The translations under genes and the position numbers were made by a program. A stretch of 64,000 nt of DNA. Origin: a bacterium (GTDB lineage Bacteria > UBA8248). Where the stretch lies: contig CBDATS010000015.1 of assembly GCA_965200245.1 (NCBI GenBank), forward strand, positions 224,001 through 288,000, written 5' to 3'. Shown here piece by piece: positions 1 to 23,824 of the stretch; position 1 is the stretch's first letter; every line of letters starts with the position of its first letter. Under the pieces are notes generated by a model. The model searched no databases. It had not been told where the DNA came from and saw only the letters and a list, made by a program, of their open reading frames with translations.

Positions 1-167
1 TTGCCTCTCGTGAGCTATTGTCCCCAAATGGTCTATATTATGTCAAAATCAGAGCGCGCTTGAATCATGTGGATTTTGTTTTTCCGTTTAACTACTTGCT
101 TGCTTTTTGGGGCAAGAAGTCTGACTGGAGCTATTCCCGGACATTTAGTTCTCAAGGAATGTGAGTT

Positions 168-2429
168 GTGGATTCAAATAGTCAGAAAAGTCTAGACATT
201 TCATTGTGCCGACGAAGAATCCTTTTGCGATCGTTGTTCGCTTTAATCGTTATAGCGACTCTTTCTTTCACGACTTGGATATATTTCGAAGAACTTGAAC
301 CGGAAGTTCCCCTCCTCAACAATGTCGTCATATTTGCGCTTATAAACTTGAGCATCATTCTGCTCATGGTAGTTATTCTCCTGGTGGCGAAGAACCTGGT
401 GCGTCTTTATTACGAAGGAACAACCGTCGGGCGTTCACGCTTGCAATTAAAGCTTGTGTTGGCATTTGTCGGATTTACGCTCATTCCTGCAGTGGCTCTT
501 TTTGTCGTGGCTAGTGGCTTGATTAACCAGAGTTTTAATGCTTTGTTCAACATGAATGTAGAGCGTGTGCTTAAAGGGTCATTCGAGGTGGCTCAAACCT
601 ATTATCGAGAGGTGGAGCGAAACGCACTATTCAGTGCGAGTCGACTTGTACTTAAGTTGGAGAAGACACGTCCTGACAAATTGGAAAATCCCAAGGCAAT
701 CGAAAAAATACTGGAGTCTGAAAGAAAGGACTTGGGGGTGGATTTCATCCAGTTCTACGATAGGGATAGGAAGGAGATTGTATCGGTCAGGCGGCCGGGA
801 GTGGAGTCATCCTCCAGGTTCTCGCCACTGGTGGGATACGTGGAACAAGTAATCGGTGGGGAATCACATTCAAGTATAGAAAGCTGGGAAAAAGGCGATG
901 TCATCTATGGCGTGTCGCCACTGAAGGTTCAAAAAAAAGTGGTGGGGTTTGTTGTTGTTTCTAAATTTGTGCCTGAAAATTTAGTTGCAAAGGTAAAAAG
1001 CATATCGGACTCTTTTGTGAATTACAAAGAATTGGAACTCTCCAAGAATCCAATCAAAGCGAACTACATCATCACTTTTTTGGTTGTCACCTTGCTGATT
1101 CTGTTTGCCGCCATTTGGTTTGGATTCTATCTGGCTCGCGGCATCACGGTTCCGATCGAAAAATTAGCGGAAGCTACGAGGGCGGTATCAGAGGGCAACC
1201 TGGAACATCGTGTTGATACACATGCGGGTGACGAGGTGGGAATTTTGGTTCGCGCATTCAACAATATGACAGAGGAGTTATTGGCCAACAAGGAGAAAAT
1301 CGAAGAATCTTCGGAGACCCTTCGCCGCTCCAATCTGGAGATAGACAGGAGGCGAAGGTATATGGAAGCGATGCTCGAAAATATCGGAGCCGGTGTGGTA
1401 TCAATCAATCGACGTGGTCGCATTACCATCCTCAACAAAGCAGCTGGAGAATTGCTGGGCATTGAGCCTCATCGTGCAGTAGGGCGAATGTTCAGCGAGG
1501 TTTTTGAAAACACGCACCTCGAACCGGTTCGCCAGTTGATGCGTTCGATGAGGGGAAAAAACCACCAAAGCGCATCAAAGCAAGTGGAAATCATGATTGA
1601 CGGGCGCGTGCTCACGCTGCGCGCGAGTTTGACTCTGCTCAATAGTGCGGATGGGGGCCGTCTTGGAGCTGTTATTGTGTTTGATGATATGACCGCCTTG
1701 ATACGTGCCCAGAAAGTGGCTGCATGGCAGGAAGTGGCTCAAGGTATCGCGCATGAGATCAAGAATCCACTTACGCCGATCCAACTGTCCGCTCAGAGGA
1801 TGAGAAGAAAATTTGAAAGTGAAGCGTATGATTTCGAGGAAGTATTTGATTCTTGTACGGATACCATTATTAGCCAGGTGACGAGCCTGATTGAAATGGT
1901 GGATGAGTTCAGTCGATTTGCTCGGATGCCGGAGCCGAGATTGAGGTTTTGCGCGTTTGTACCACTAGTCGAAGACGTGGCGAATTTATATCGTGGCAGG
2001 AAGGGGTCGGTGGAATTTTCCATTCAAATCAACGCGGTGAATACAGCGGTCATGGCGGATCCCGAGCAATTACAGCGTGTGTTCATGAATTTGCTGGAAA
2101 ACGCTTTCGAGTCCCACAAGTTTGGGGGCGTGGTCGATTTGCAAGCATGGAGCGATCAAGACAGGCATATGATAGTCGTTGAGGTCGCTGATCAGGGGCA
2201 GGGCATATCGGAAAACATGAAGGGGCATATATTTTCGCCATATTTCTCCACGAAAAATAGAGGCTCTGGGTTGGGTTTGGCCATTTGCCAGCGAATTTTA
2301 GCGGATCACCATGGAACGATAAGCGTCCGAGACAATCATCCTGTGGGTTCCATTTTTCGTGTCACATTGCCGTTGGCACCTGCTTCGGGTGTCCCGCCCC
2401 AAAAACAAAGGATGGCTTCGATTGGATAA
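168..2429 (+). CDS. ntrY: NtrY-like membrane sensor histidine kinase (HAMP, PAS, HisKA, HATPase)
   Basis: Several N-terminal TM helices; HAMP (ITVPIEKLAEATRAVSEGNL); H-box AWQEVAQGIAHEIKNPLTPIQLSA typical of NtrY; FSTKNRGSGLGLAI G boxes. Confidence 0.9.
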   Translation: MDSNSQKSLDISLCRRRILLRSLFALIVIATLSFTTWIYFEELEPEVPLLNNVVIFALINLSIILLMVVILLVAKNLVRLYYEGTTVGRSRLQLKLVLAFVGFTLIPAVALFVVASGLINQSFNALFNMNVERVLKGSFEVAQTYYREVERNALFSASRLVLKLEKTRPDKLENPKAIEKILESERKDLGVDFIQFYDRDRKEIVSVRRPGVESSSRFSPLVGYVEQVIGGESHSSIESWEKGDVIYGVSPLKVQKKVVGFVVVSKFVPENLVAKVKSISDSFVNYKELELSKNPIKANYIITFLVVTLLILFAAIWFGFYLARGITVPIEKLAEATRAVSEGNLEHRVDTHAGDEVGILVRAFNNMTEELLANKEKIEESSETLRRSNLEIDRRRRYMEAMLENIGAGVVSINRRGRITILNKAAGELLGIEPHRAVGRMFSEVFENTHLEPVRQLMRSMRGKNHQSASKQVEIMIDGRVLTLRASLTLLNSADGGRLGAVIVFDDMTALIRAQKVAAWQEVAQGIAHEIKNPLTPIQLSAQRMRRKFESEAYDFEEVFDSCTDTIISQVTSLIEMVDEFSRFARMPEPRLRFCAFVPLVEDVANLYRGRKGSVEFSIQINAVNTAVMADPEQLQRVFMNLLENAFESHKFGGVVDLQAWSDQDRHMIVVEVADQGQGISENMKGHIFSPYFSTKNRGSGLGLAICQRILADHHGTISVRDNHPVGSIFRVTLPLAPASGVPPQKQRMASIG

Positions 2430-4554
2430 GGGACATGTCCTCATCGTCGATGATGAGCCTGAAATTCTCGCGAGTCTGGAAGGTGTTTTGCAAGATGAAG
2501 GCTATCGCGTAGAGCAGGCGGATTCTGGTGAATACGCTCTTCATCTGATCCGAACCGAAACCCCGGATGTGGTTTTAGTTGACATATGGATGCCGGGAAT
2601 CGATGGGATTAAGACCTTGCAAGCGGTCAAAAGTTTGGATGCGTATGTTGAAGTCGTTGTGATGTCAGGACACGGAAGCATAGAAACTGCCGTTACCGCC
2701 ACAAAATTGGGAGCCTTCAATTTTATTGAAAAACCTCTTTCCATCGATACAGTTTTGCGCATAGTCGATTCTGCTGTTCGATCTCGAAAGTCTAAGGAGT
2801 TCAAGACAAGTGCGGTAGCCGGTATGATGTTGGATGGCACCAGTAAAAGTATTCAGACAGTCCGAAAAACTATCCGGAGAGTTGCTGGAGAAACTGGTCC
2901 CTTGTTGGTAGCAGGTGAAAGAGGAACCGGCAAGCGATTTATTGCAAGGGTAATTCAAAAGAACAGCCTTGGGCCAGAGCGGGACTTCAGACCTGTTCAT
3001 TGCCGATCGCTATTTCCCAAAACAGAGAAAAAACAATGGAAAGAAACAATCGCGAGGCTTGTGCCCGATACATTTCAGGGCGTGGTATATCTTGATGGGC
3101 TGGAACATGTGCCGGTGGCGGAGAGAGAGACTCTGCTATTGCAACTGATCAAGTCTCTGAACGATTCGATGCGGTTAATCATATCCTTTGCTCATGTCGG
3201 TGCTTCGAGGGACAAAACCTATGTACGAACTTTGTCTGCAAACATTGGTGCTGATGTAATACATTTGCCCTCCTTACGCGAACGCAGAGCAGACATCTTG
3301 CCATTGGCCAATAGGTTTTTGGCTGAATGCGTCGAAGTGGGTGGGAACGAAAAGGAATTCTCCGAAGATGTTGTTGTGCTTCTGAAAGAATATGATTGGC
3401 CGGGCAATATCGCGGAACTGAAAGGGGTGGTGACCAATGCGGCGTATGCATCGAAAGGAACGGAGATTCGCATTGGGCACATGCCGCATTTCGTACGAGA
3501 GACTTCCGCTTTTGGTACGGATGCATCGGAGGACACAACGCCTTCGAATTTTGATATGGCCAGAACCCAATGGGAAAGACAGTATCTCACCTTTCATTTG
3601 GAGGAGAACGGCTGGAACATCAACAAAACCGCAGAAGTGGTTGGCATGGCGAGGTCTGTCTTAAAGCGGAAAATCAGATTATATAAAATCAAGCCGCTAT
3701 CATCTGTGCCAACTAAGCTGAGAGCGGCGAGCCAGCGGAGTATTTCGAAGAGTGTCGTGCTGTATGGTCGGGGGCTTCATTCAGGATTGAAAACTGGTTT
3801 AATCATTGAGCCCATGCCTCTGGGAAGCGGGATTCAGTTCGGCAACCTGACAAGCCCTGACATCGTGAAAGCGAATATCGATTTCGTGGATGGAACCAAC
3901 CATGCGACCAACTTACGAAACGGAGCGGTGACGGCTCGAACGATTGAGCATCTCATGAGTGCGCTGCATGCATACAAGATCAGCAACATTCTCATAAAGT
4001 TGAACGAGGAAGTTCCCGTCATGGATGGGTCGGCAGTGGAATTTTGTCGCTTGCTTGAAGAGGCAGGCATTGAGACTCAGAAAGAAAACCGCGAAGATTT
4101 ATGGGTTGATAAGGTTTACGAAGTTGGTGATCCGGATGATGAGAAGGGCTGTATTCGCATTGAACCGTCGGATTCTTTCTCGATTTCATATCTCTTGGAT
4201 TACCCTGATCCGATTGGGAAACAATCTTACTTGTATGAACACAAAAATGCATTAAGTTTTCAGGAAGAAATCGCACCGGCTCGTACGTTCGGTTTTGTAT
4301 CGGAATTGGAAGCGCTCGAAAAAATGGGGTTGGCCGAGGGAGGTCGATGGGACAACGTGATCCTCGTGGATAAGACCCGTGTCGTGAATACCCAATTGCG
4401 ATTTCCTGATGAGTTCGTTCGTCATAAAATTTTGGATATCATTGGAGATCTGTATTTAATCGGTAGGCCGATTCGAGGCAAAGTAACCGCCGAAAGGAGT
4501 GGTCATCGGCACAATGTCGCTTTAGTCAAGAAACTAATAGAAGCCCATGGCTGA
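2422..4554 (+). CDS. lpxC: Fusion: NtrX-like response regulator (receiver, degenerate AAA+, Fis-type HTH) + LpxC UDP-3-O-acyl-GlcNAc deacetylase
   Basis: Receiver VLIVDDE..LVDIWMPG..FIEKP; Walker A GERGTGK; DWPGNIAEL; HTH WNINKTAEVVGMARSVLKRKI; from ~3733 an LpxC domain (GRGLHSG, TIEHLMSAL, EVPVMDGSA, IAPARTFGF, RHKILDIIGDL, SGH). Probable TTG start at 2422 overlaps the ntrY stop; ORF track starts at 2359. Confidence 0.9.
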   Translation: MDKGHVLIVDDEPEILASLEGVLQDEGYRVEQADSGEYALHLIRTETPDVVLVDIWMPGIDGIKTLQAVKSLDAYVEVVVMSGHGSIETAVTATKLGAFNFIEKPLSIDTVLRIVDSAVRSRKSKEFKTSAVAGMMLDGTSKSIQTVRKTIRRVAGETGPLLVAGERGTGKRFIARVIQKNSLGPERDFRPVHCRSLFPKTEKKQWKETIARLVPDTFQGVVYLDGLEHVPVAERETLLLQLIKSLNDSMRLIISFAHVGASRDKTYVRTLSANIGADVIHLPSLRERRADILPLANRFLAECVEVGGNEKEFSEDVVVLLKEYDWPGNIAELKGVVTNAAYASKGTEIRIGHMPHFVRETSAFGTDASEDTTPSNFDMARTQWERQYLTFHLEENGWNINKTAEVVGMARSVLKRKIRLYKIKPLSSVPTKLRAASQRSISKSVVLYGRGLHSGLKTGLIIEPMPLGSGIQFGNLTSPDIVKANIDFVDGTNHATNLRNGAVTARTIEHLMSALHAYKISNILIKLNEEVPVMDGSAVEFCRLLEEAGIETQKENREDLWVDKVYEVGDPDDEKGCIRIEPSDSFSISYLLDYPDPIGKQSYLYEHKNALSFQEEIAPARTFGFVSELEALEKMGLAEGGRWDNVILVDKTRVVNTQLRFPDEFVRHKILDIIGDLYLIGRPIRGKVTAERSGHRHNVALVKKLIEAHG

Positions 4555-4606
4555 TTTCGAATTTCGTCCGAACCGTTCCGCTTCCTGAAACCATGGAACA
4601 TTACTG

Positions 4607-5659
4607 TTGAACGAATATCGCCTGACATACCGCGACGCGGGCGTCGACGTGGGTTTGGGGGAGGGGTTCGCTCAAGCTATCTCTCAGATAGCAAAATCCA
4701 CTCATGACAGCCAAAAGGGCCGTATCTTGCGCGGACCATCGGATTTTGCAGGCTGGTTTCGGCTCGGGAAATATGAAGATCCTGTAATCGTTTCAGGCAC
4801 AGACGGCGTTGGCACAAAATTGCTTCTGGCTCAGGAATTCGGGCGACATGATACTGTCGGAATTGATTTGGTGGCCATGTGCGTTAATGACATCTTAACC
4901 ACAGGAGCAGAACCGCTTTTTTTTCTTGACTACATAGCGACAGGCAAGATTGACGAAAGTGTTTTGAAGACGGTCGTGTCCGGTATCGCTCAAGGATGTC
5001 GTGAGGCGGGCTGTGCTCTCCTCGGAGGCGAGACGGCCGAAATGCCTGGTATGTATAAACCAAATGTGTACGACCTCGCCGGATTCGCTGTAGGCGTTGT
5101 GGAACGCAAGGCGTTGGACAATTATACGCGCGTGAAAGCAGGTGACGCCATACTGGCGCTGCCTTCCTCAGGAATACATAGTAACGGATATTCCATGGTG
5201 CGGAAGATATTCGACTCGAAAGAAACACGGAGTGAGGCAACGCGAAGACTGGGCATACCTATCGAGGATGTTTTGTTGGAGCCGACTCGTATTTTCACTA
5301 AAGGAGCGAATTGCATCCGAGGTGATGAGAGTGTAAGCGATATCGCGCACATTACGGGAGGCGGCATTCCGGGAAACGTGAGTCGTGTGATGCCGGATGA
5401 TTTGCAAGCGATCTTTCATCCAGAAAAATGGGCGACGCCGGAGATATTTCAATTGATCCGGGAGTTTGGCCCGATTGATTACGCAGAGATGTATCGCACT
5501 TTTAACATGGGGTTAGGCTTTGTCTTCTTCGTGAGGGCGGAGCGTGTGGACTCTTTACTCGAAGATTTCCAGAACGCAGGTGAGGAAACTATGGTTGTCG
5601 GTGAGGTAGTCAAGATGCCGAAATCCGGCCGTTCTGTTGTAATAGAGGGCAAATTTTAG
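4607..5659 (+). CDS. purM: Phosphoribosylformylglycinamidine cyclo-ligase
   Basis: TYRDAGVD, GTDGVGTK, GGETAEMPG, SSGIHSNGYS, HITGGG, RTFNMG. Confidence 0.97.
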   Translation: MNEYRLTYRDAGVDVGLGEGFAQAISQIAKSTHDSQKGRILRGPSDFAGWFRLGKYEDPVIVSGTDGVGTKLLLAQEFGRHDTVGIDLVAMCVNDILTTGAEPLFFLDYIATGKIDESVLKTVVSGIAQGCREAGCALLGGETAEMPGMYKPNVYDLAGFAVGVVERKALDNYTRVKAGDAILALPSSGIHSNGYSMVRKIFDSKETRSEATRRLGIPIEDVLLEPTRIFTKGANCIRGDESVSDIAHITGGGIPGNVSRVMPDDLQAIFHPEKWATPEIFQLIREFGPIDYAEMYRTFNMGLGFVFFVRAERVDSLLEDFQNAGEETMVVGEVVKMPKSGRSVVIEGKF

Positions 5660-11428: not shown

Positions 11429-11626
11429 GTGGCTTATAGTGGAGTTCGGGAGTGTGCTGTTTGCGCTTGGCGAGAGGGTTGTCGCCTGAGATATCGAAAT
11501 GAACCGGACGGAGCGATCTTCTGCCCGGAATTTTCTCCAGACTTAAGATTACAACAAACCGAATCGAAGAACATATCATCTTCATCCGAACGCAGGAACA
11601 GGGAGCAAATGACAAATGAGACGTGA
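11429..11626 (+). CDS. Small Cys-rich hypothetical protein (CxxCxWxxxC...C)
   Basis: 65 aa ORF, GTG start after GGGAG; CAVCAWREGC..FCPEF has four Cys, a possible metal site. Confidence 0.55.
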   Translation: MAYSGVRECAVCAWREGCRLRYRNEPDGAIFCPEFSPDLRLQQTESKNISSSSERRNREQMTNET

Positions 11627-11784
11627 AATTGAGATTCTTGTTTTGCTCTTGTTGGGATATTTGTGCTTGATGCTAGGCTTTCGCATGGAAGATATCGGAA
11701 TGCAGGTTTTCTTCTATATTCTCTCGGCCATGTTTTTTTTCGCCATATTCCGACCCAAACAGTCTCCCTAACAGGGTGCATCCC

Positions 11785-11861
11785 GGCGGCGTAGCTCAAC
11801 TGGTTAGAGCATACGGCTCATATCCGTAGTGTTGGGGGTTCAAGTCCCTCCGCCGCCACCA
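11785..11861 (+). tRNA. tRNA-Met (CAT), elongator type
   Basis: GGCGGCG/CGCCGCC acceptor stem, anticodon arm TACGG-CTCATAT-CCGTA, GTTCAAG T loop, encoded CCA. Confidence 0.9.
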
Positions 11862-18441: not shown

Positions 18442-19053
18442 ATGCTTTTCAGTAAGATACTGCGAGTGGTGTTACTGGGTTTTTTACTCGCTATAGGCGG
18501 CACGATTACTTATTTTCTTTTGGGTTCTTCGGGTCATCATTTGAAAATAGGAGAAGTTTCATTCAAGGGCTCGGATGCGGATATAAATATCAATAAAGTG
18601 CATGTTATTCAAAACACGAAAGGCAGAAAGGAATGGGAGTTGTGGGCGGATTCGGCTAATGTGTATCGTCAAAAAGAGTTGACGATTCTGAAGAACCTGA
18701 AGCTTCGTTTTTATCCGGAAAAAGGCAACCCTACGTTAGTGACTGCCCAGCAAGGAACTATGCAGAATGAAAGCCATAATATCAAAATCAGCGGCAATAT
18801 CACTATAATTACATCAAACGGCGTTTCAATGAAAACGGGGTCTTTGTATTTTCGCGCAAAAGAAAAGCGCATTGAATCAGATTCAAGGGTTTTGATGGAG
18901 GGTGCTGGCTTTCGCTTGGTCGGAACGGGCTTGGAGGGGCAAACTGATATCGGGCATTATGCTCTGAAGAAAAAAGTGAGGGCGACGATTTTCGGTGCGA
19001 ACAGAAACCCTCTCAAGCAGGAAAGACGAAACAGGCTTACTCGCGCGAATTAG
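18442..19053 (+). CDS. lptC: LPS export periplasmic protein LptC
   Basis: Single N-terminal TM, KEWELWADSA, beta-rich periplasmic domain; upstream of lptA-lptB-rpoN. Confidence 0.8.
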   Translation: MLFSKILRVVLLGFLLAIGGTITYFLLGSSGHHLKIGEVSFKGSDADININKVHVIQNTKGRKEWELWADSANVYRQKELTILKNLKLRFYPEKGNPTLVTAQQGTMQNESHNIKISGNITIITSNGVSMKTGSLYFRAKEKRIESDSRVLMEGAGFRLVGTGLEGQTDIGHYALKKKVRATIFGANRNPLKQERRNRLTRAN

Positions 19054-19075
19054 TGGAACAGACTGTCTGTCCCAA

Positions 19076-19681
19076 ATGGAGGCTGTTTTGAAACCAGTCA
19101 ACTGCTGCCCGAAGCATCTCGGCCTCATTGGTATAGGATTATGTGTGGTCTGCATTTTGTGGGGTTCCCCTTATTCGTTTGCGCAAGGGAAAAACAAAAG
19201 AGGCCAGCTACACACCAAGGATCAAATTCACATCACCTCTGATAAGATGGAAGTCAAGAGTCGCGAGAATCTCATCGTGTTCATCGGTAACGTACAGGCT
19301 AATCATGGAGATGTGAATCTGAAAGCGAATCGCTTGGAAGTTTATACACAGCCGACCACAGGGGCGAGTTCGAAACGTAAGCCGATTCCCAACGACAGGG
19401 CAGGGGAAATCGATAGAATTGTGGCGATTGGGAACGTGAAGATGGGCCAAGCGAAAAGGAGGTTCGCCACTGCCGCAAGGCTTGAATATCGAGAATCCAC
19501 TGGTATCGCAATTCTGACGGGCAATCCCCGCGTATGGGAAAGGAAAAATCAGTTGGTCGGCGCAAAAATAGAGTTAAACTTGAGAGAAAACAAAACGATA
19601 GTCCATGGCACGCCTCGCCGAAGAGTCAGCGTTACCGTATTCCCTTCCAGCGAGACGCCCCGTCCCTCAAAATCCAACTAA
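19076..19681 (+). CDS. lptA: LPS transport periplasmic protein LptA
   Basis: IHITSDKM, VFIGNVQA, RIVAIGNV, ILTGNPRVW, GAKIEL (OstA-like); start uncertain. Confidence 0.85.
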   Translation: MEAVLKPVNCCPKHLGLIGIGLCVVCILWGSPYSFAQGKNKRGQLHTKDQIHITSDKMEVKSRENLIVFIGNVQANHGDVNLKANRLEVYTQPTTGASSKRKPIPNDRAGEIDRIVAIGNVKMGQAKRRFATAARLEYRESTGIAILTGNPRVWERKNQLVGAKIELNLRENKTIVHGTPRRRVSVTVFPSSETPRPSKSN

Positions 19682-19690
19682 ACCCATGCA

Positions 19691-20455
19691 ATGGCTACGC
19701 AGACCAATAGCAACGCGACGTGGCGGCCAGATGTCTTTTCCATCCAAGCTATAGGCTTGACGAAAAGCTATGCTGGAAGAGAGGTGGTTTCCGGCGTCGA
19801 GATAGAAGTGCATCCTAGCGAAATCGTCGGGTTGCTTGGACCGAACGGGGCTGGCAAGACGACAATATTTTATATGATTGTCGGGTTGCTCGTTCCGGAT
19901 GCGGGAAAGATTTTCTTGAACGGCGAAGAAATCACCAGCCAACCTATGTATAGGCGCGCCAAGCAAGGAATCAACTATTTGCCACAGGAAGCATCCGTAT
20001 TTCGTCGCCTTACAGTGAGGCAAAATGTTATGGCGGTGCTTGAATTGGTTTTACAAGATCGAAATGAGCGAGAGAGGCGTTTGGACGAGATTTTAGAGGA
20101 CCTCGACATCCAGCATATTCAATCGGCAAGGGGATATGCCCTATCCGGCGGAGAGCGGAGACGTGTAGAAATTGCCCGTGCACTGGCCACCAATCCTATG
20201 TTCATGCTCCTGGATGAGCCTTTTGCTGGAATCGACCCCATTCTAGTGAACGATATCCAGGGTATCGTGACGGACTTAAAAGCTCGTGGTATTGGCATCA
20301 TTATCACTGATCACAACGTGCGCGAGGCGCTTCATATATCCGACAGGGTGTACATTATCAACGAGGGGCGGATTCTGGAGTCCGGTATGCCGGAGGAAAT
20401 CGCCGCCAGCGAAAAGGCCCGGGATATTTATCTGGGTGAGAAATTTCGTCTTTGA
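19691..20455 (+). CDS. lptB: LPS export ABC transporter ATPase LptB
   Basis: [55 protein letters not shown]. Confidence 0.97.
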
Positions 20456-20471
20456 TGGTAAGGGAACAGAC

Positions 20472-21914
20472 ATGGTATTGCAGCATAAACTGGCTATAAG
20501 ATCGGAGCAACGTCTCGTTATGACCGCCATGATGCGCCAAGCGATTGGCCTCTTGCCTCTAAATCGCTTAGAAATGCAGCAGGCCGTTCAGCAGGAAATT
20601 TTAAACAATCCTTTGCTAGAAGAGATTCAGAATGAAATCAGTGAAGTGGCTGATGGAGAGATGCCGGAAATGAGAAACGATGTTCCCGAGAACCAAAATG
20701 ATGAACGAGGCGACGTTGAAATCGATTGGGAAAATATTGTGCAGGGCAATTATGGTGAATTTGCTTATCCTGCCTCAGATGATGAGTTTCCTTCTCGTGA
20801 GCAGACTTTGGAGCGGACTGTCACCTTGCATGAACATCTGGAATGGCAATTGAGTCTTTCCATAGTTCCCGAACCGGTTGCAAGGGTTGCCGAGCAGATT
20901 ATCTGGAATATCAATGATGAGGGATACCTTGAAGCCGATGTGCAAGAGTTGGCGGACAATTTGGGCCTAGGGCTTTTCGAGGCGGAAAAGGCATTAGCTT
21001 TGGTGCAAGGGTTCAATCCAACCGGAGTTGCTGCAAGAACGCTTCAAGAATGCATTCTTATGCAATTGAATAATAATGATTTGCATTCAATTTACTGTTT
21101 GTCGATTTTAGATTTGGCGCGGGTTTTGGTGCTCGAAGATATTGAAAAAATCGGTGAACGGCAATATGCGAAACTCGCCAAGGCCAACAGCGTCGGGGTG
21201 GAAGATGTCTTTCAGGCGGTTCAAATCATTCAAAGTCTCGATCCTCGCCCGGGTTTACAATTTTCGCAGCAAAGAGTGGAGGTAGTGGCTCCTGATGTGA
21301 GCGTCACCAAGAGAGGTGATGATTATGAGGTAGTGCTCAATGACGATGGCCTGCCGCTTCTGCGCGTGAATTCTCTATATGCGACCATGCTGGCCGACAA
21401 AATGAATACTTCTTCCGAAACGCGGGATTATCTGGAAGAAAGGCTTAGGGCGGCTCAGTGGTTCCTCAAAAGTATTGAGCAAAGAAGGCAGACGATACTG
21501 AGAGTTTGCCGAAGTATTGTTCGCTTTCAAAAGGATTTTCTGGACAATGGAGTGAGTTGCTTGAAACCGCTGATTTTGAGGGAAGTAGCGCAGGATATCG
21601 GAATGCACGAATCGACTGTGAGCCGTGTTACAACGGACAAGTACATGGATACGCCGCAAGGCGTTTTGAATTTGAAGTATTTCTTCCATAGCGGGTTGGA
21701 ATCGAGTGCGGGGGAGAGCACTTCTTCGGTAGCGATAAAAGAAATCATCAAGAAAATGGTGGCACAGGAAAGTCCCGATGAGCCGCTCACAGACCAAAAA
21801 ATTGCAGATGGGCTCAAGAAGGAAAACGTGGCGATTGCGAGGCGAACGATTACAAAATACCGAAAAGAACTGCGAATTTCTCCCGCTGGCAAAAGACGGA
21901 AGATTCGGCTATGA
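20472..21914 (+). CDS. rpoN: RNA polymerase sigma-54 factor
   Basis: GVAARTLQEC, GMHESTVSRV, LKYFF, RpoN box ARRTITKYR; ATG at 20472. Confidence 0.96.
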   Translation: MVLQHKLAIRSEQRLVMTAMMRQAIGLLPLNRLEMQQAVQQEILNNPLLEEIQNEISEVADGEMPEMRNDVPENQNDERGDVEIDWENIVQGNYGEFAYPASDDEFPSREQTLERTVTLHEHLEWQLSLSIVPEPVARVAEQIIWNINDEGYLEADVQELADNLGLGLFEAEKALALVQGFNPTGVAARTLQECILMQLNNNDLHSIYCLSILDLARVLVLEDIEKIGERQYAKLAKANSVGVEDVFQAVQIIQSLDPRPGLQFSQQRVEVVAPDVSVTKRGDDYEVVLNDDGLPLLRVNSLYATMLADKMNTSSETRDYLEERLRAAQWFLKSIEQRRQTILRVCRSIVRFQKDFLDNGVSCLKPLILREVAQDIGMHESTVSRVTTDKYMDTPQGVLNLKYFFHSGLESSAGESTSSVAIKEIIKKMVAQESPDEPLTDQKIADGLKKENVAIARRTITKYRKELRISPAGKRRKIRL

Positions 21915-22157
21915 CGCGCGGAGGGCCAGGATTGTTGTCAATAATAAAATCAGGAAAATCTGCTATCATGCCAATTATCCTTGGTTGGATACCTGACACA
22001 CGGTGATTTGCAAGGAATCAAGGGGAGCTATGTGCTTACAGGTCTTATGGTATTTTCACAATTTAGTATGGTGGATGAGAGGCATTACTCCGGGCGTTCT
22101 TTCGCATTCCCGGGGACACATATCGAAACTTCAGGGATGTATTGAGCATCAAGGAAT

Positions 22158-23099
22158 ATGATGGGTAAACTCTCCGTAATTCAATTGTACGAAGATTTAC
22201 GCGAAGAGTTGAAGTTATTTATTCTCTCGGGTGAATCTGGCATGGGCCGTTGGGTCAATCATACGCACTTTCAGAAAAATGGCTTGCCTCTCGCTGGATT
22301 CCTGAAAGCCGTACACCCCGACAGGATTCAGGTATGGGGCAGTACAGAGATTCGGTTTCTTGAATATCTTGAGGAGGGTGCACGCTTAGAGGCTGTGCGC
22401 AAATACTTTGGCTTGCCCTTATGCGCGGTCTTGATCACTGGAGGAAAAGATATTTCCCCGAGCATCCGGGAAGCGTCCGACAAGTCCGGCGTACCAATCA
22501 TCGTCTCGGGTTTGCCCGGCAAGGACTTGATGCCGAAATTGTCGGCGTATCTCGAGCAGCATCTCTCCCTGCATGCCCGACTCCATGGGGTCCTCGTTGA
22601 TTTATACGGTGTCGGGGTGCTCATCCAGGGGAAAAGCGGCATTGGAAAAAGCGAGTGTGCCCTCCATCTCGTCACGAGGGGGCATCGACTTGTCGCCGAC
22701 GACGTAGTAGATATCCAGTTGCGCGGGAACGAATTGGTCGGAAGAAGCACGGATTTGCTTAAGCACCACATTGAGGTGCGGGGCCTTGGAATTCTGAACC
22801 TGAAAGATCTCTTTGGTGTCGTAGCGATCCGATACGAAAAGAACGTCGAGATGATCGTGGAGTTGAGCCCCTTGACCCCGGATTTGCCTTTCGAACGTCT
22901 TGGTATTGACATTGAAACGGAAGAAATTCTAGGCAAATCCCTGCCACACGTGAAAATTCCCGTTGCGCCCGGGAGGAATATCCCTACGCTCATCGAGGTG
23001 GCAGCTCGGAATCTGTTGCTGCAAAGAATGGGTTATTTTTCCGCTGAAGAATTTACTCGAACGCTCTCCGCTCAGATAGCACTCGGGTCGACCGGTTAG
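22158..23099 (+). CDS. hprK: HPr kinase/phosphorylase
   Basis: HGVLVDLYGVGVLIQGKSGIGKSE, HRLVADD, IEVRGLGI, PGRNI. Confidence 0.96.
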   Translation: MMGKLSVIQLYEDLREELKLFILSGESGMGRWVNHTHFQKNGLPLAGFLKAVHPDRIQVWGSTEIRFLEYLEEGARLEAVRKYFGLPLCAVLITGGKDISPSIREASDKSGVPIIVSGLPGKDLMPKLSAYLEQHLSLHARLHGVLVDLYGVGVLIQGKSGIGKSECALHLVTRGHRLVADDVVDIQLRGNELVGRSTDLLKHHIEVRGLGILNLKDLFGVVAIRYEKNVEMIVELSPLTPDLPFERLGIDIETEEILGKSLPHVKIPVAPGRNIPTLIEVAARNLLLQRMGYFSAEEFTRTLSAQIALGSTG

Positions 23100-23123
23100 C
23101 CAGACAGAAAAAAGAGGCTTTGC

Positions 23124-23546
23124 ATGATAGGTTTGGTGATCGTCGGCCACGGAGACTATCCGGATGCACTGTTGAATGCAGCGGAATCCGTTTTGTCCAG
23201 CGCTTCTCAAATGAAAGCTCTTTCCCTGCGTGCAGACATGGACCCAGCTGGATTTACAGAAAAAATAGAAAAAGCGGTGAAGGAGGTGGATACGGGGGAG
23301 GGGATTATAATCATGACAGACATGATGGGAGGAGCGCCAACCAATGCCGCTCTCGCTATGCTGAATCATCCCAGAGTAGAGGTGGTGACGGGAGTGAACT
23401 TACCGATGCTCTTGAAACTATCGTTCATAAAGGGAAAGACTGTTTCCGAAGCGGCGAGATTTCTGGTGGAGTATGGAAGGCGGAATCTGGCTCAACCGAG
23501 TGAAATGATAAATTCCATAAAACAACGACCTGCCAAGGAGGAATGA
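23124..23546 (+). CDS. PTS EIIA, mannose/fructose family
   Basis: IVGHG, TDMMGGAP, VVTGVNLPMLL. Confidence 0.9.
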   Translation: MIGLVIVGHGDYPDALLNAAESVLSSASQMKALSLRADMDPAGFTEKIEKAVKEVDTGEGIIIMTDMMGGAPTNAALAMLNHPRVEVVTGVNLPMLLKLSFIKGKTVSEAARFLVEYGRRNLAQPSEMINSIKQRPAKEE

Positions 23547-23824
23547 GCGCCGTCATGGCAGAGCAAAAAATCAGCGTCAGCAATCGAATGGGGCTTCACG
23601 CCAGAGCGACTGCCAGGTTCGTGAGGCTGTCGAGCAAATTCGAAAGCGATATTTTCGTTCGATATCGTGACATGGAAGTGGACGGGAAAAGTATCATGGG
23701 TGTCATGATGCTTGCGGTTCCTCCTGGTTCGGAACTTCTAATTAAGGCTTTTGGTTCTGATGAAAACGCTGCTGTTGCGGAATTGGCGGATTTGGTTCAA
23801 TCCGGCTTTGAGGATATGGCATAG
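23543..23824 (+). CDS. ptsH: Phosphocarrier protein HPr
   Basis: GLHAR (His15), DGKSIMGVMML (Ser46). Confidence 0.93.
   Translation: MSAVMAEQKISVSNRMGLHARATARFVRLSSKFESDIFVRYRDMEVDGKSIMGVMMLAVPPGSELLIKAFGSDENAAVAELADLVQSGFEDMA

Follow-up and report, generated by a model that had tools for sequence, protein, structure and literature searches.

An NtrX-like response regulator fused to LpxC

We analyzed a 64,000-nucleotide stretch of DNA (the window; positions 224,001 to 288,000 of the forward strand of contig CBDATS010000015.1, GenBank assembly GCA_965200245.1) from a bacterium of the GTDB lineage UBA8248, in the Nitrospinota. An operon for a DUF4390 protein, an NtrY-type sensor histidine kinase and an NtrX-like response regulator begins just before the window, which contains its last two and a half genes; the regulator carries at its C-terminus a complete LpxC, the control point of lipopolysaccharide (LPS) synthesis and a leading antibiotic target. 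The architecture, the intact phospho-acceptor and catalytic residues, the single gene copy, the operon context and the conservation pattern are direct observations. The reading that we favor, and consider probable, is that kinase-driven phosphorylation of Asp75 in the receiver domain would set the activity, assembly state or lifetime of the fused LpxC after translation.

Residues are numbered in a 731-residue frame unless 710-residue numbering is stated, and coordinates are positions in the window. A first-pass annotation, made from the letters alone, had read a receiver, an AAA+ domain, a Fis-type helix-turn-helix (HTH), a short linker and LpxC in one uninterrupted open reading frame (ORF). 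This holds: positions 2359..4554 (+) form a single frame, 731 residues long from GTG 2359, in which Pfam recognizes these domains. A database protein of 710 residues (P0001) is 100% identical to the window's fused protein; the likely start of the gene is therefore TTG 2422, with AAGGATGG just 5' of it, and the gene then occupies 2422..4554 (+), with its stop at 4552-4554. The start had been said to overlap the ntrY stop, and indeed the beginning of the fused gene shares 8 nt with the end of ntrY, whose stop codon TAA lies at 2427-2429.

All of the domains lie on the forward strand. The receiver comes first (2437..2763, residues 27-135; Pfam Response_reg, 2.5e-29) and is followed by a degenerate AAA+ core and lid (2836..3519, residues 160-387; Sigma54_activ_2 at 160-306, 1.4e-09, and AAA_lid_14 at 307-387). 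Next is the Fis-type HTH (3568..3678, residues 404-440; HTH_8, 27.5 bits against a cut-off of 22), which aligns with the NtrX C-terminus. A junction linker of 18 residues (3679..3732, residues 441-458), poorly conserved and free of any stop or conserved Met, leads into the LpxC domain (3733..4539, residues 459-727; Pfam LpxC, 4.4e-83, 279.3 bits, profile positions 1-267 of 268). The match is followed by 4 residues, and the enzyme has no C-terminal tail.

For the N-terminal part, the best NCBIfam model is that of NtrX (NF051870; 240.3 bits, below the cut-off of 600), and the best solved relative is Brucella abortus NtrX (5m7n; 9.6e-48, residues 26-440). The NtrX-type layout is present: a receiver, an AAA+ module without GAFTGA and a Fis-type HTH, encoded directly after ntrY.

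Residues for phosphorylation and catalysis are intact

The motifs that the first-pass annotation had named for the receiver and for LpxC are all in place. In the receiver these are DD at 31-32, LVDIWMPG at 73-80 and EKP at 124-126. Asp75, the phospho-acceptor within LVDIWMPG (codon at 2581..2583, +; Asp54 in 710-residue numbering), aligns with the Asp of Brucella NtrX, and D10, D11, D54 and K104 (710-residue numbering) are invariant in 34 of 34 aligned fused proteins.

The LpxC domain contains TIEHLMSA (528-535), RHKILD (688-693) and SGH (714-716). Aligned to solved LpxC structures, it keeps Glu530/His531, Thr643/Phe644, His689/Lys690/Asp693/Asp697 and His716, each of which is shared by at least 97% of 107 LpxC domains, fused and unfused together. 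Glu530, His531, His689, Asp693 and His716, which we take to correspond to Glu78, His79, His238, Asp242 and His265 of the Escherichia coli enzyme, are invariant in the 34 fused proteins. The best solved relatives are the LpxC enzymes of Pseudomonas aeruginosa, Aquifex aeolicus and E. coli (~1e-47, residues 458-727), and the NCBIfam lpxC model TIGR00325 gives 236.3 bits, above its equivalog cut-off of 187.25. Eight positions separate fused from unfused LpxC: Val467, Thr479, Gly480, His537, Lys547, Cys563, Leu669 and Thr678. Lys547 is replaced by Glu in 78% of unfused LpxC domains, and Leu669 by Val in 96%.

The AAA+ domain and the Fis-type HTH of the earlier reading are both present, but the AAA+ domain is degenerate. 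Its Walker A motif is kept (GERGTGK); in Walker B, the Asp-Glu of NtrX is replaced by Asp-Gly, and a deletion follows this motif. Sigma54_activat matches with 32.3 bits over profile positions 3-61 of 168 only, compared with 238.5 bits over positions 1-167 of 168 for the genome's true sigma-54 activator, encoded on contig C5. None of the features of an NtrC-type sigma-54 activator (GAFTGA, a full Sigma54_activat match, Asp-Glu in Walker B) is found in the window's protein. Across the 119 fused proteins longer than 600 residues there is no GAFTGA-like motif, and the Walker B acid pair is DG in 79, DD in 11, DE in 4 and something else in 13; in the remaining 12, the Walker B search pattern or Walker A was not found. 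By its motifs, the AAA+ module is a remnant and not an intact ATPase.

Conservation was compared as mean pairwise identity among 5 genus-level rows, within a 13-row clade and across all 34 rows, given here in this order. The receiver (91/80/62%) and the LpxC domain (91/74/59%) are the most conserved parts of the fused protein. The AAA core (70/45/31%), the AAA lid (75/54/40%) and the HTH (77/52/36%) come below them, and the junction linker has the lowest identity of all parts (51/28/17%).

The fused gene is the only lpxC of the genome

The junction was checked on independent sequence. A DNA contig of 41,412 nt from a run of another study (X2) covers positions 2300-4600 with 0 differences and 0 gaps, and a further run (X4) covers the same interval. 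Two contigs from metatranscriptome libraries, X6 (3625-4098) and X7 (3331-3844), span the junction with 0 differences; because DNA can contaminate RNA libraries, transcription of the fused gene across the junction is likely rather than proven. All 120 best relatives in a set of 5.8 billion proteins carry the LpxC family, in proteins of 436-768 residues. Several of these relatives lie on contigs of 2-4 Mb, and several 710-residue forms on contigs of 3-4 Mb from independent assemblies.

The source genome comprises 3.68 Mb in 15 contigs and is 95.8% complete, with 8.1% estimated contamination. A second lpxC was looked for in it and there is none, the fused gene being the single LpxC match. Genes for lpxA (255 bits) and lpxB (249 bits) lie on contig C5, both above their cut-offs, and an lpxD-like match stands beside lpxA. 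As the sole LpxC copy in a genome with the rest of the pathway, the fused protein is predicted to be the cell's deacetylase. A second match to the NtrX model, also on C5, was considered as a separate ntrX and rejected: it is a canonical sigma-54 activator, and a PAS kinase of its own accompanies it.

LpxC is present in 50 of 51 Nitrospinota genomes, each time at one locus; where two LpxC matches occur, in three genomes, the cause is a frameshift (one genome) or a split at a contig end (two genomes). The open frames around LpxC, measured from stop to stop and so approximating protein lengths, span 646-755 residues in 35 genomes, to which 2 partial matches in long frames can be added, and 432-538 residues in 9; in another 4, fragmentation prevents a judgement. 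A stand-alone LpxC in intact form was not found in these 51 genomes. Five of five genomes from other phyla that have the fused form likewise lack a second LpxC.

Distribution and architecture variants

Examined for its taxonomic spread, the fusion was found in several phyla. By their record titles, from which all taxon labels of relatives are taken, the relatives belong to Nitrospinae/Nitrospinota, Tectomicrobia, Schekmanbacteria, Thermodesulfobacteriota and one Alphaproteobacteria-labelled metagenome-assembled genome. We scanned 78 loci with our own domain hidden Markov models (HMMs). Five of them encode the complete fusion in a single frame (L011, L013, L015, L017 and L060), and 17 hold the receiver and LpxC only, with titles that include Thermoanaerobaculia, Holophagae, Terriglobia, Binataceae, Thermodesulfovibrionia and Desulfocapsaceae. 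One locus (L008) is cut by a contig end. In all six short forms examined, Pfam reports only Response_reg and LpxC at E ≤ 1e-6.

The same HMMs, applied to 266 stored proteins, recognize 112 receiver-AAA-HTH-LpxC forms, 6 receiver-AAA-LpxC, 2 receiver-HTH-LpxC and 30 receiver-LpxC, the rest being N-terminally cut forms and 105 proteins without LpxC. The receiver-HTH-LpxC intermediate (P0131 and P0134) was dropped, as it appears with our own HMMs only and Pfam at E ≤ 1e-6 gives Response_reg and LpxC for P0131. A profile of the fused alignment, run against a library of 1.84 billion representatives (50% clusters), retrieved about 16 full-length and about 25 short-form clusters, as judged from lengths and matched ranges, before plain NtrX-like proteins appeared.

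Within single groups, the class of a Desulfomonile genome (G055) has the full fusion in one frame in 26 of 51 genomes, and the class of a Thermoanaerobaculia-labelled genome (G054) has receiver-LpxC at full coverage in 21 of 61. In the GTDB phylum of a Binataceae genome (G052), which is evidently broad, LpxC lies in open frames of at least 417 residues, again counted from stop to stop, in 13 of 61 genomes; these are candidate fusions.

Constant across the variants are an intact receiver, an intact LpxC and their order, with an NtrY-type kinase immediately upstream in many lineages. The DNA-binding and ATPase parts are, on this comparison of sequences, dispensable. Such a pattern is expected if control of the enzyme by the receiver is what is selected, and for this reason we favor that model.

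Some other arrangements were seen. In two contigs of metagenome-assembled genomes, the fused gene is split over two overlapping frames (L009:3005-5667 and L026:3977-5253), through frameshift or sequencing error. A fused receiver-LpxC and a stand-alone lpxC co-occur in genomes G145, G165, G169 and G087, and in the first two the stand-alone copy has a kinase-regulator cluster downstream; genomes with both copies are possibly snapshots of the transition, or else duplications. Omnitrophota have LpxC frames of 434-440 residues (L084:4016-5317 and L085:3962-5281) with the LpxC domain N-terminal and an extension at the C-terminus.

Operon structure and the upstream kinase

The first operon gene encodes a DUF4390 (PlrP-like) protein. 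Its 3' end occupies positions 1..164 (+), and its start, an ATG at L086:7559 set from an alignment of 22 genus-level loci, lies 441 nt before the window. The ORF (L086:7544-8164; PF14334, 8.4e-27, 94.1 bits, cut-off 27) stops 3 nt before ntrY, and the N-terminus of the protein reads as hydrophobic. At 9 other loci, a DUF4390 homologue immediately precedes the kinase gene, and the family of the organism has DUF4390 in 39 of 42 genomes. Distances were compared in four genomes: DUF4390 lies ~4.2 kb upstream of the LpxC match in G030, which has the full fusion, and ~2.8 kb upstream in G024, G042 and G046, which have the short form.

The second gene (168..2429, +) encodes a sensor histidine kinase of 753 residues. 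It had been called an NtrY kinase, and the Pfam matches agree: NtrY_N (26.3 bits, cut-off 23.2), HAMP, PAS, HisKA and HATPase_c. Hydrophobic segments lie at residues 18-40, 47-82, 92-120 and 295-328. The H-box AHEIKNPL (528-535), within the HisKA match at 520-587, contains His529 (codon at 1752..1754, +), presumed from the role of its counterparts in the family to be the site of autophosphorylation; N, G1 and G2 boxes are also present. An NtrY-like kinase is encoded directly upstream of the short forms L018, L025, L027 and L028 and of the full form L011, and at Nitrospinota loci, those with short forms included, DUF4390-ntrY sits upstream of the LpxC fusion. The Desulfomonile full fusion is preceded by an 881-residue hybrid kinase with three receiver matches, which is not of the NtrY type (L017:1694-4336), and L013 and L015 have no NtrY-like gene within the flank.

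Between mutS and DUF4390, a sigma-70-like promoter is conserved in the 22 genus-level loci, with a -35 element TTGAGA, a spacer of ~17 nt, a TAGCAT-like -10 element and a ribosome-binding site. Searched for regulator-type palindromes, the 22-locus alignment of this region gave none that the window retains. A short ATGC..GCAT repeat upstream of DUF4390 was considered as a regulator site and dropped, since it is not kept in the window itself.

Probable origin from an unfused gene cluster

Seven of the 78 loci carry unfused clusters, the nearest unfused relatives of the fusion, in the order lpxC, DUF4390, ntrY-like kinase, regulator (L047, L064, L068, L070, L072, L074 and L083). L054, one more kinase-regulator locus in which the upstream sequence suffices, has DUF4390 and no lpxC. 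In the class of G054, the best listed receiver match lies 3.0-3.9 kb downstream, on the same strand, at 36 of 42 stand-alone lpxC loci (the unpublished genome G119, which supports no claim in this analysis, left out); the 6 exceptions are contig ends or genomes with unlisted matches. Relatives with separate ntrX and lpxC had been named in advance as evidence against a link between regulator and enzyme. Such relatives do exist, but the objection fails: the separate genes adjoin one another in lpxC-DUF4390-ntrY-regulator clusters, which supports a functional link.

By their motifs, the regulators of the unfused clusters are canonical sigma-54 activators. GAFTGA is present in 6 of 7 and the Walker B Asp-Glu in 7 of 7, and the L072 regulator matches Sigma54_activat with 242.6 bits over positions 2-167 of 168. 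Sigma-54-type -24/-12 motifs stand before the unfused lpxC in L070 (1 mismatch) and L072 (2 mismatches) and are suggestive of sigma-54-type promoters; no such motif was found before lpxC in L064, L074 or L083, and L047 and L068 have no upstream sequence.

In a tree of 107 LpxC domains, one branch (SH-aLRT 100) parts 58 fused domains (39 full, 17 short, 2 broken) from 49 unfused ones (43 stand-alone, 6 kinase-cluster neighbors). The receiver tree (124 rows, 117 columns) contains a clade (support 88) that unites the 40 full forms and 21 of the 43 short forms with one plain regulator. Its sister group (support 80) consists of three unfused NtrX-type regulators, namely those of L072 and L047, which are lpxC-linked, and that of L062, a contig-cut locus. 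Five short forms are nested among 8 full forms in the Nitrospinota receiver clade (98*), and P0131 is placed inside full forms (98*). P0153, a receiver-AAA-HTH protein of 469 residues without LpxC, groups with the fused P0066 (99*), which may reflect a secondary fission or else a truncated gene model.

The fusion is old and under selection. Its ancestor appears to have been an lpxC-DUF4390-ntrY-regulator cluster in which a sigma-54-type regulator would have controlled lpxC transcription. In the simplest history, lpxC fused to the neighboring sigma-54 regulator, every descendant seen then lost the sigma-54 function, and the middle module was deleted several times, with receiver and enzyme kept under strong constraint. 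We infer the direction from full to short forms because short forms nest within full forms and re-insertion of an AAA+-HTH module is implausible.

Proposed receiver control of LpxC and competing explanations

In the mechanism that we propose, the kinase and its putatively periplasmic partner DUF4390 would sense the state of the envelope and phosphorylate Asp75. The phosphorylated receiver would alter the conformation or the oligomeric state of the polypeptide, and the activity (or lifetime) of the attached deacetylase, and with it lipid A flux, would thereby be set. Through its retained HTH, the window's protein may additionally control its own operon. Phosphotransfer from NtrY and an effect on LpxC in one direction or the other are what we infer; the sign of the control is not readable from sequence. 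The wiring of a kinase to LpxC, the central claim of the first-pass annotation, is real and stronger than the letters alone could show: it involves the only LpxC of the genome, it is kept throughout the phylum and in other phyla, and the receiver-LpxC pair survives repeated loss of the DNA-binding middle.

Several points weigh against receiver control as we propose it. The 78 loci, from species-representative genomes, were picked for their similarity to the query, and neighborhood counts among them are not those of a random sample. The trees are 'quick' IQ-TREE trees and unrooted, and the receiver tree is weakly resolved, its key supports being 80-88. No kinase gene lies near the Acidobacteriota short forms L014 and L022, nor near L010. 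In the window's lineage, the AAA+ and HTH parts (70-77% identity) exceed the linkers (51-63%), and HTH_8 scores above its cut-off; on these grounds, the receiver could here still serve mainly to control DNA binding. In addition, the Desulfovibrio vulgaris regulator DVU2934, taken up below, is only a putative orthologue of the window's regulator, and the accessible text of the DVU2934 paper names neither NtrX nor NtrY (PMC3333781; this and the other papers cited here were available in part).

The conservation of the middle parts and the HTH_8 score lead to the main alternative, which we nevertheless consider unlikely. In it, the fusion serves co-expression only: it would tie the amount of LpxC to that of the regulator, and the receiver would act on DNA binding alone, without allostery toward LpxC. 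The HTH_8 match and a central module more conserved than the linkers speak for it, as do the conserved sigma-70-like -35/-10 elements upstream of DUF4390 and the description of B. abortus NtrX as a repressor of its own promoter (PMC6158489). The promoter alignment, however, has no conserved regulator-type palindrome, and the phospho-acceptor residues are all invariant in the fused proteins. Moreover, 30 of the 266 stored proteins, and whole lineages, keep the receiver and LpxC without a DNA-binding domain, and in such forms LpxC is the only possible output.

The attachment of the enzyme to the receiver might also be undone. Free LpxC could arise by an internal translation start or by cleavage of the linker, in which case the fusion would be an arrangement of the transcript or of a precursor only; we regard this as quite improbable. 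The linker is the least conserved part of the protein, and there is an in-frame GTG at nt 3706, as this explanation would have it. Yet the junction has no stop and, as the earlier annotation had noted, no convincing ribosome-binding site: the nearby in-frame starts are GTG 3706 and GTG 3757, both without a Shine-Dalgarno sequence at a usable distance. The 34 aligned proteins show no conserved Met or start at the junction. A promoter scan of positions 1-5000 returned 5 sites against 6.0 expected by chance, none of them near the junction, and terminator counts in the scan were also at chance level. An internal start would, furthermore, leave unexplained both the open frame across phyla and the presence of the receiver in every variant.

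Still further from the evidence, and very improbable, is a reversed flow of information in which the LpxC domain would have no catalytic role and would instead sense a lipid A precursor and signal back to the regulator. The eight positions that differ consistently between fused and unfused LpxC, Lys547 for example, would agree with a changed role; against this, none of its metal-binding or catalytic residues has been lost, its equivalog score exceeds the cut-off, and the genome, which has lpxA, lpxB and lptCAB, contains no other LpxC. Finally, an assembly or sequencing artefact, by way of a lost stop codon or a chimeric contig, can be set aside in spite of the 15 contigs and 8.1% estimated contamination, given the identical sequence in another study's run, the 120 of 120 best relatives with LpxC in 436-768-residue proteins, several on contigs of 2-4 Mb, and the 35 Nitrospinota genomes with 646-755-residue frames around LpxC.

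Genomic neighborhood

Other envelope genes of the window are lolA (6336), rseP (7082), ftsH (13475) and lptC/A/B (18442-20452). The first-pass annotation had placed them correctly, but their nearness, which it had brought forward, by itself adds nothing to the case. The lpt genes form part of a classical lptC-lptA-lptB-rpoN-hprK-PTS IIA-HPr cluster at 18442-23821 (+). Its rpoN shows that the genome has sigma-54, even though the sigma-54-contacting parts are gone from the fused regulator.

A LapA-domain protein of 132 residues (Pfam, 2e-14) is encoded at L086:4357-4752 (+), 3.2-3.6 kb before the window and just 5' of mutS, with no LapB-like gene beside it. No match to the LapB zinc ribbon was found in the genome, which is weak evidence of absence because the zinc-ribbon control matched 10 of 14 genomes, Gram-positives included. 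An Rfam scan of the whole window returned 4 tRNAs only. The tRNA gene at 11785-11858 (+; 68.1 bits) overlaps the end of a 121-residue ORF at 11437-11799 (-), which has no NCBIfam match and is probably no gene.

Relation to known systems and significance

NtrY/NtrX and the Bordetella PlrP-PlrS-PlrR system share with the window the order of DUF4390, NtrY-type kinase (NtrY_N, HAMP, PAS) and regulator. PlrP, a DUF4390 homologue, has been proposed as the periplasmic third component of the NtrYX-family system PlrSR; the survey in the accessible text of that paper covered Proteobacteria only, whereas the lineage of the window is Nitrospinota (PMC13001219). B. abortus NtrX has been described as an enhancer-binding protein of atypical kind, a repressor of its own promoter that, like the window's regulator, lacks the GAFTGA loop (PMC6158489). 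In contrast to NtrX, the window's regulator bears a C-terminal LpxC, has a Walker B motif without Glu and reaches 240 bits with the NtrX model against a cut-off of 600.

A link to the envelope and to lpxC transcripts has been published for NtrY/NtrX too, NtrYX lowering lpxC transcripts in Rhodobacter sphaeroides and Caulobacter crescentus (PMC7240162, PMC12444477). Loss of NtrYX in R. sphaeroides raises lpxC transcripts 8.8-fold and increases LPS, with no NtrX site reported at lpxC in the text available (PMC7240162). A 2025 review of lipid A regulation names NtrYX and ChvGI as systems acting on transcription in two Alphaproteobacteria; its accessible text presents NtrYX as an indirect transcriptional influence only, and 'fused', 'fusion' and 'Nitrospin' occur nowhere in it (PMC12444477).

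The D. vulgaris system DVU2931/DVU2934 is, by its description, similar in being a two-component regulator dedicated to lpxC, which is the single target of DVU2934; in Syntrophobacter fumaroxidans, lpxC lies directly upstream of the operon orthologous to the DVU2934 system, the same arrangement as in our 7 unfused loci (PMC3333781). Control there is transcriptional and exerted by separate proteins (PMC3333781). In the window, regulator and enzyme form a single polypeptide.

Control of E. coli LpxC is different again. The enzyme is regulated by FtsH, with involvement of its C-terminal end (cited in PMC5007114). Unlike the enzyme under FtsH/LapB/YejM control, the fused LpxC has no tail and ends 4 residues past the domain, and the control proposed here would be phosphorylation, not proteolysis. 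To our knowledge, LpxC regulation outside a few Proteobacteria is largely unknown.

LpxC also forms part of a larger polypeptide in the bifunctional LpxC/FabZ (NF009667). There, LpxC is joined to a C-terminal metabolic enzyme; in the window, its partner is an N-terminal signaling module. NF009667 matches the fused protein over positions 3-220 of 464, with 214.6 bits against a cut-off of 465, and Pfam finds no FabZ domain in it.

Response regulators with an enzyme as output include the CheB methylesterase, the PleD and WspR cyclases, and RpfG. They likewise combine an N-terminal receiver, with its phospho-acceptor residues, and a catalytic domain, and the short relatives of the window's protein have no other output. 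The window's protein itself differs from them in the AAA+ remnant and HTH that stand between receiver and enzyme. An enzyme-output regulator of the REC-HD-GYP type has been described (bioRxiv 10.1101/2021.11.05.467447, available in part). LpxC as a response-regulator output domain was not found in the literature searched, and a full-text search, with most subscription journals outside its reach, returned no paper describing an NtrX-LpxC or receiver-LpxC fusion. The fused proteins could thus constitute an undescribed response-regulator family with an LpxC output, in place of the sigma-54 control of the ancestral cluster and of the FtsH/LapB proteolysis of enterobacteria, a proposal to which we give a little less than even credence.

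This natural fusion ties an NtrY-type kinase to LpxC and comes with graded deletion variants, down to receiver-LpxC, and with unfused clusters of the ancestral type. The question of which signal sets LPS flux, and in what way, thereby becomes directly testable on one purified protein with point mutants of one aspartate. By a Rosetta-stone argument, the links between NtrYX and the envelope in Alphaproteobacteria and between DVU2934 and lpxC in Desulfovibrio would reflect an old and widespread functional coupling.

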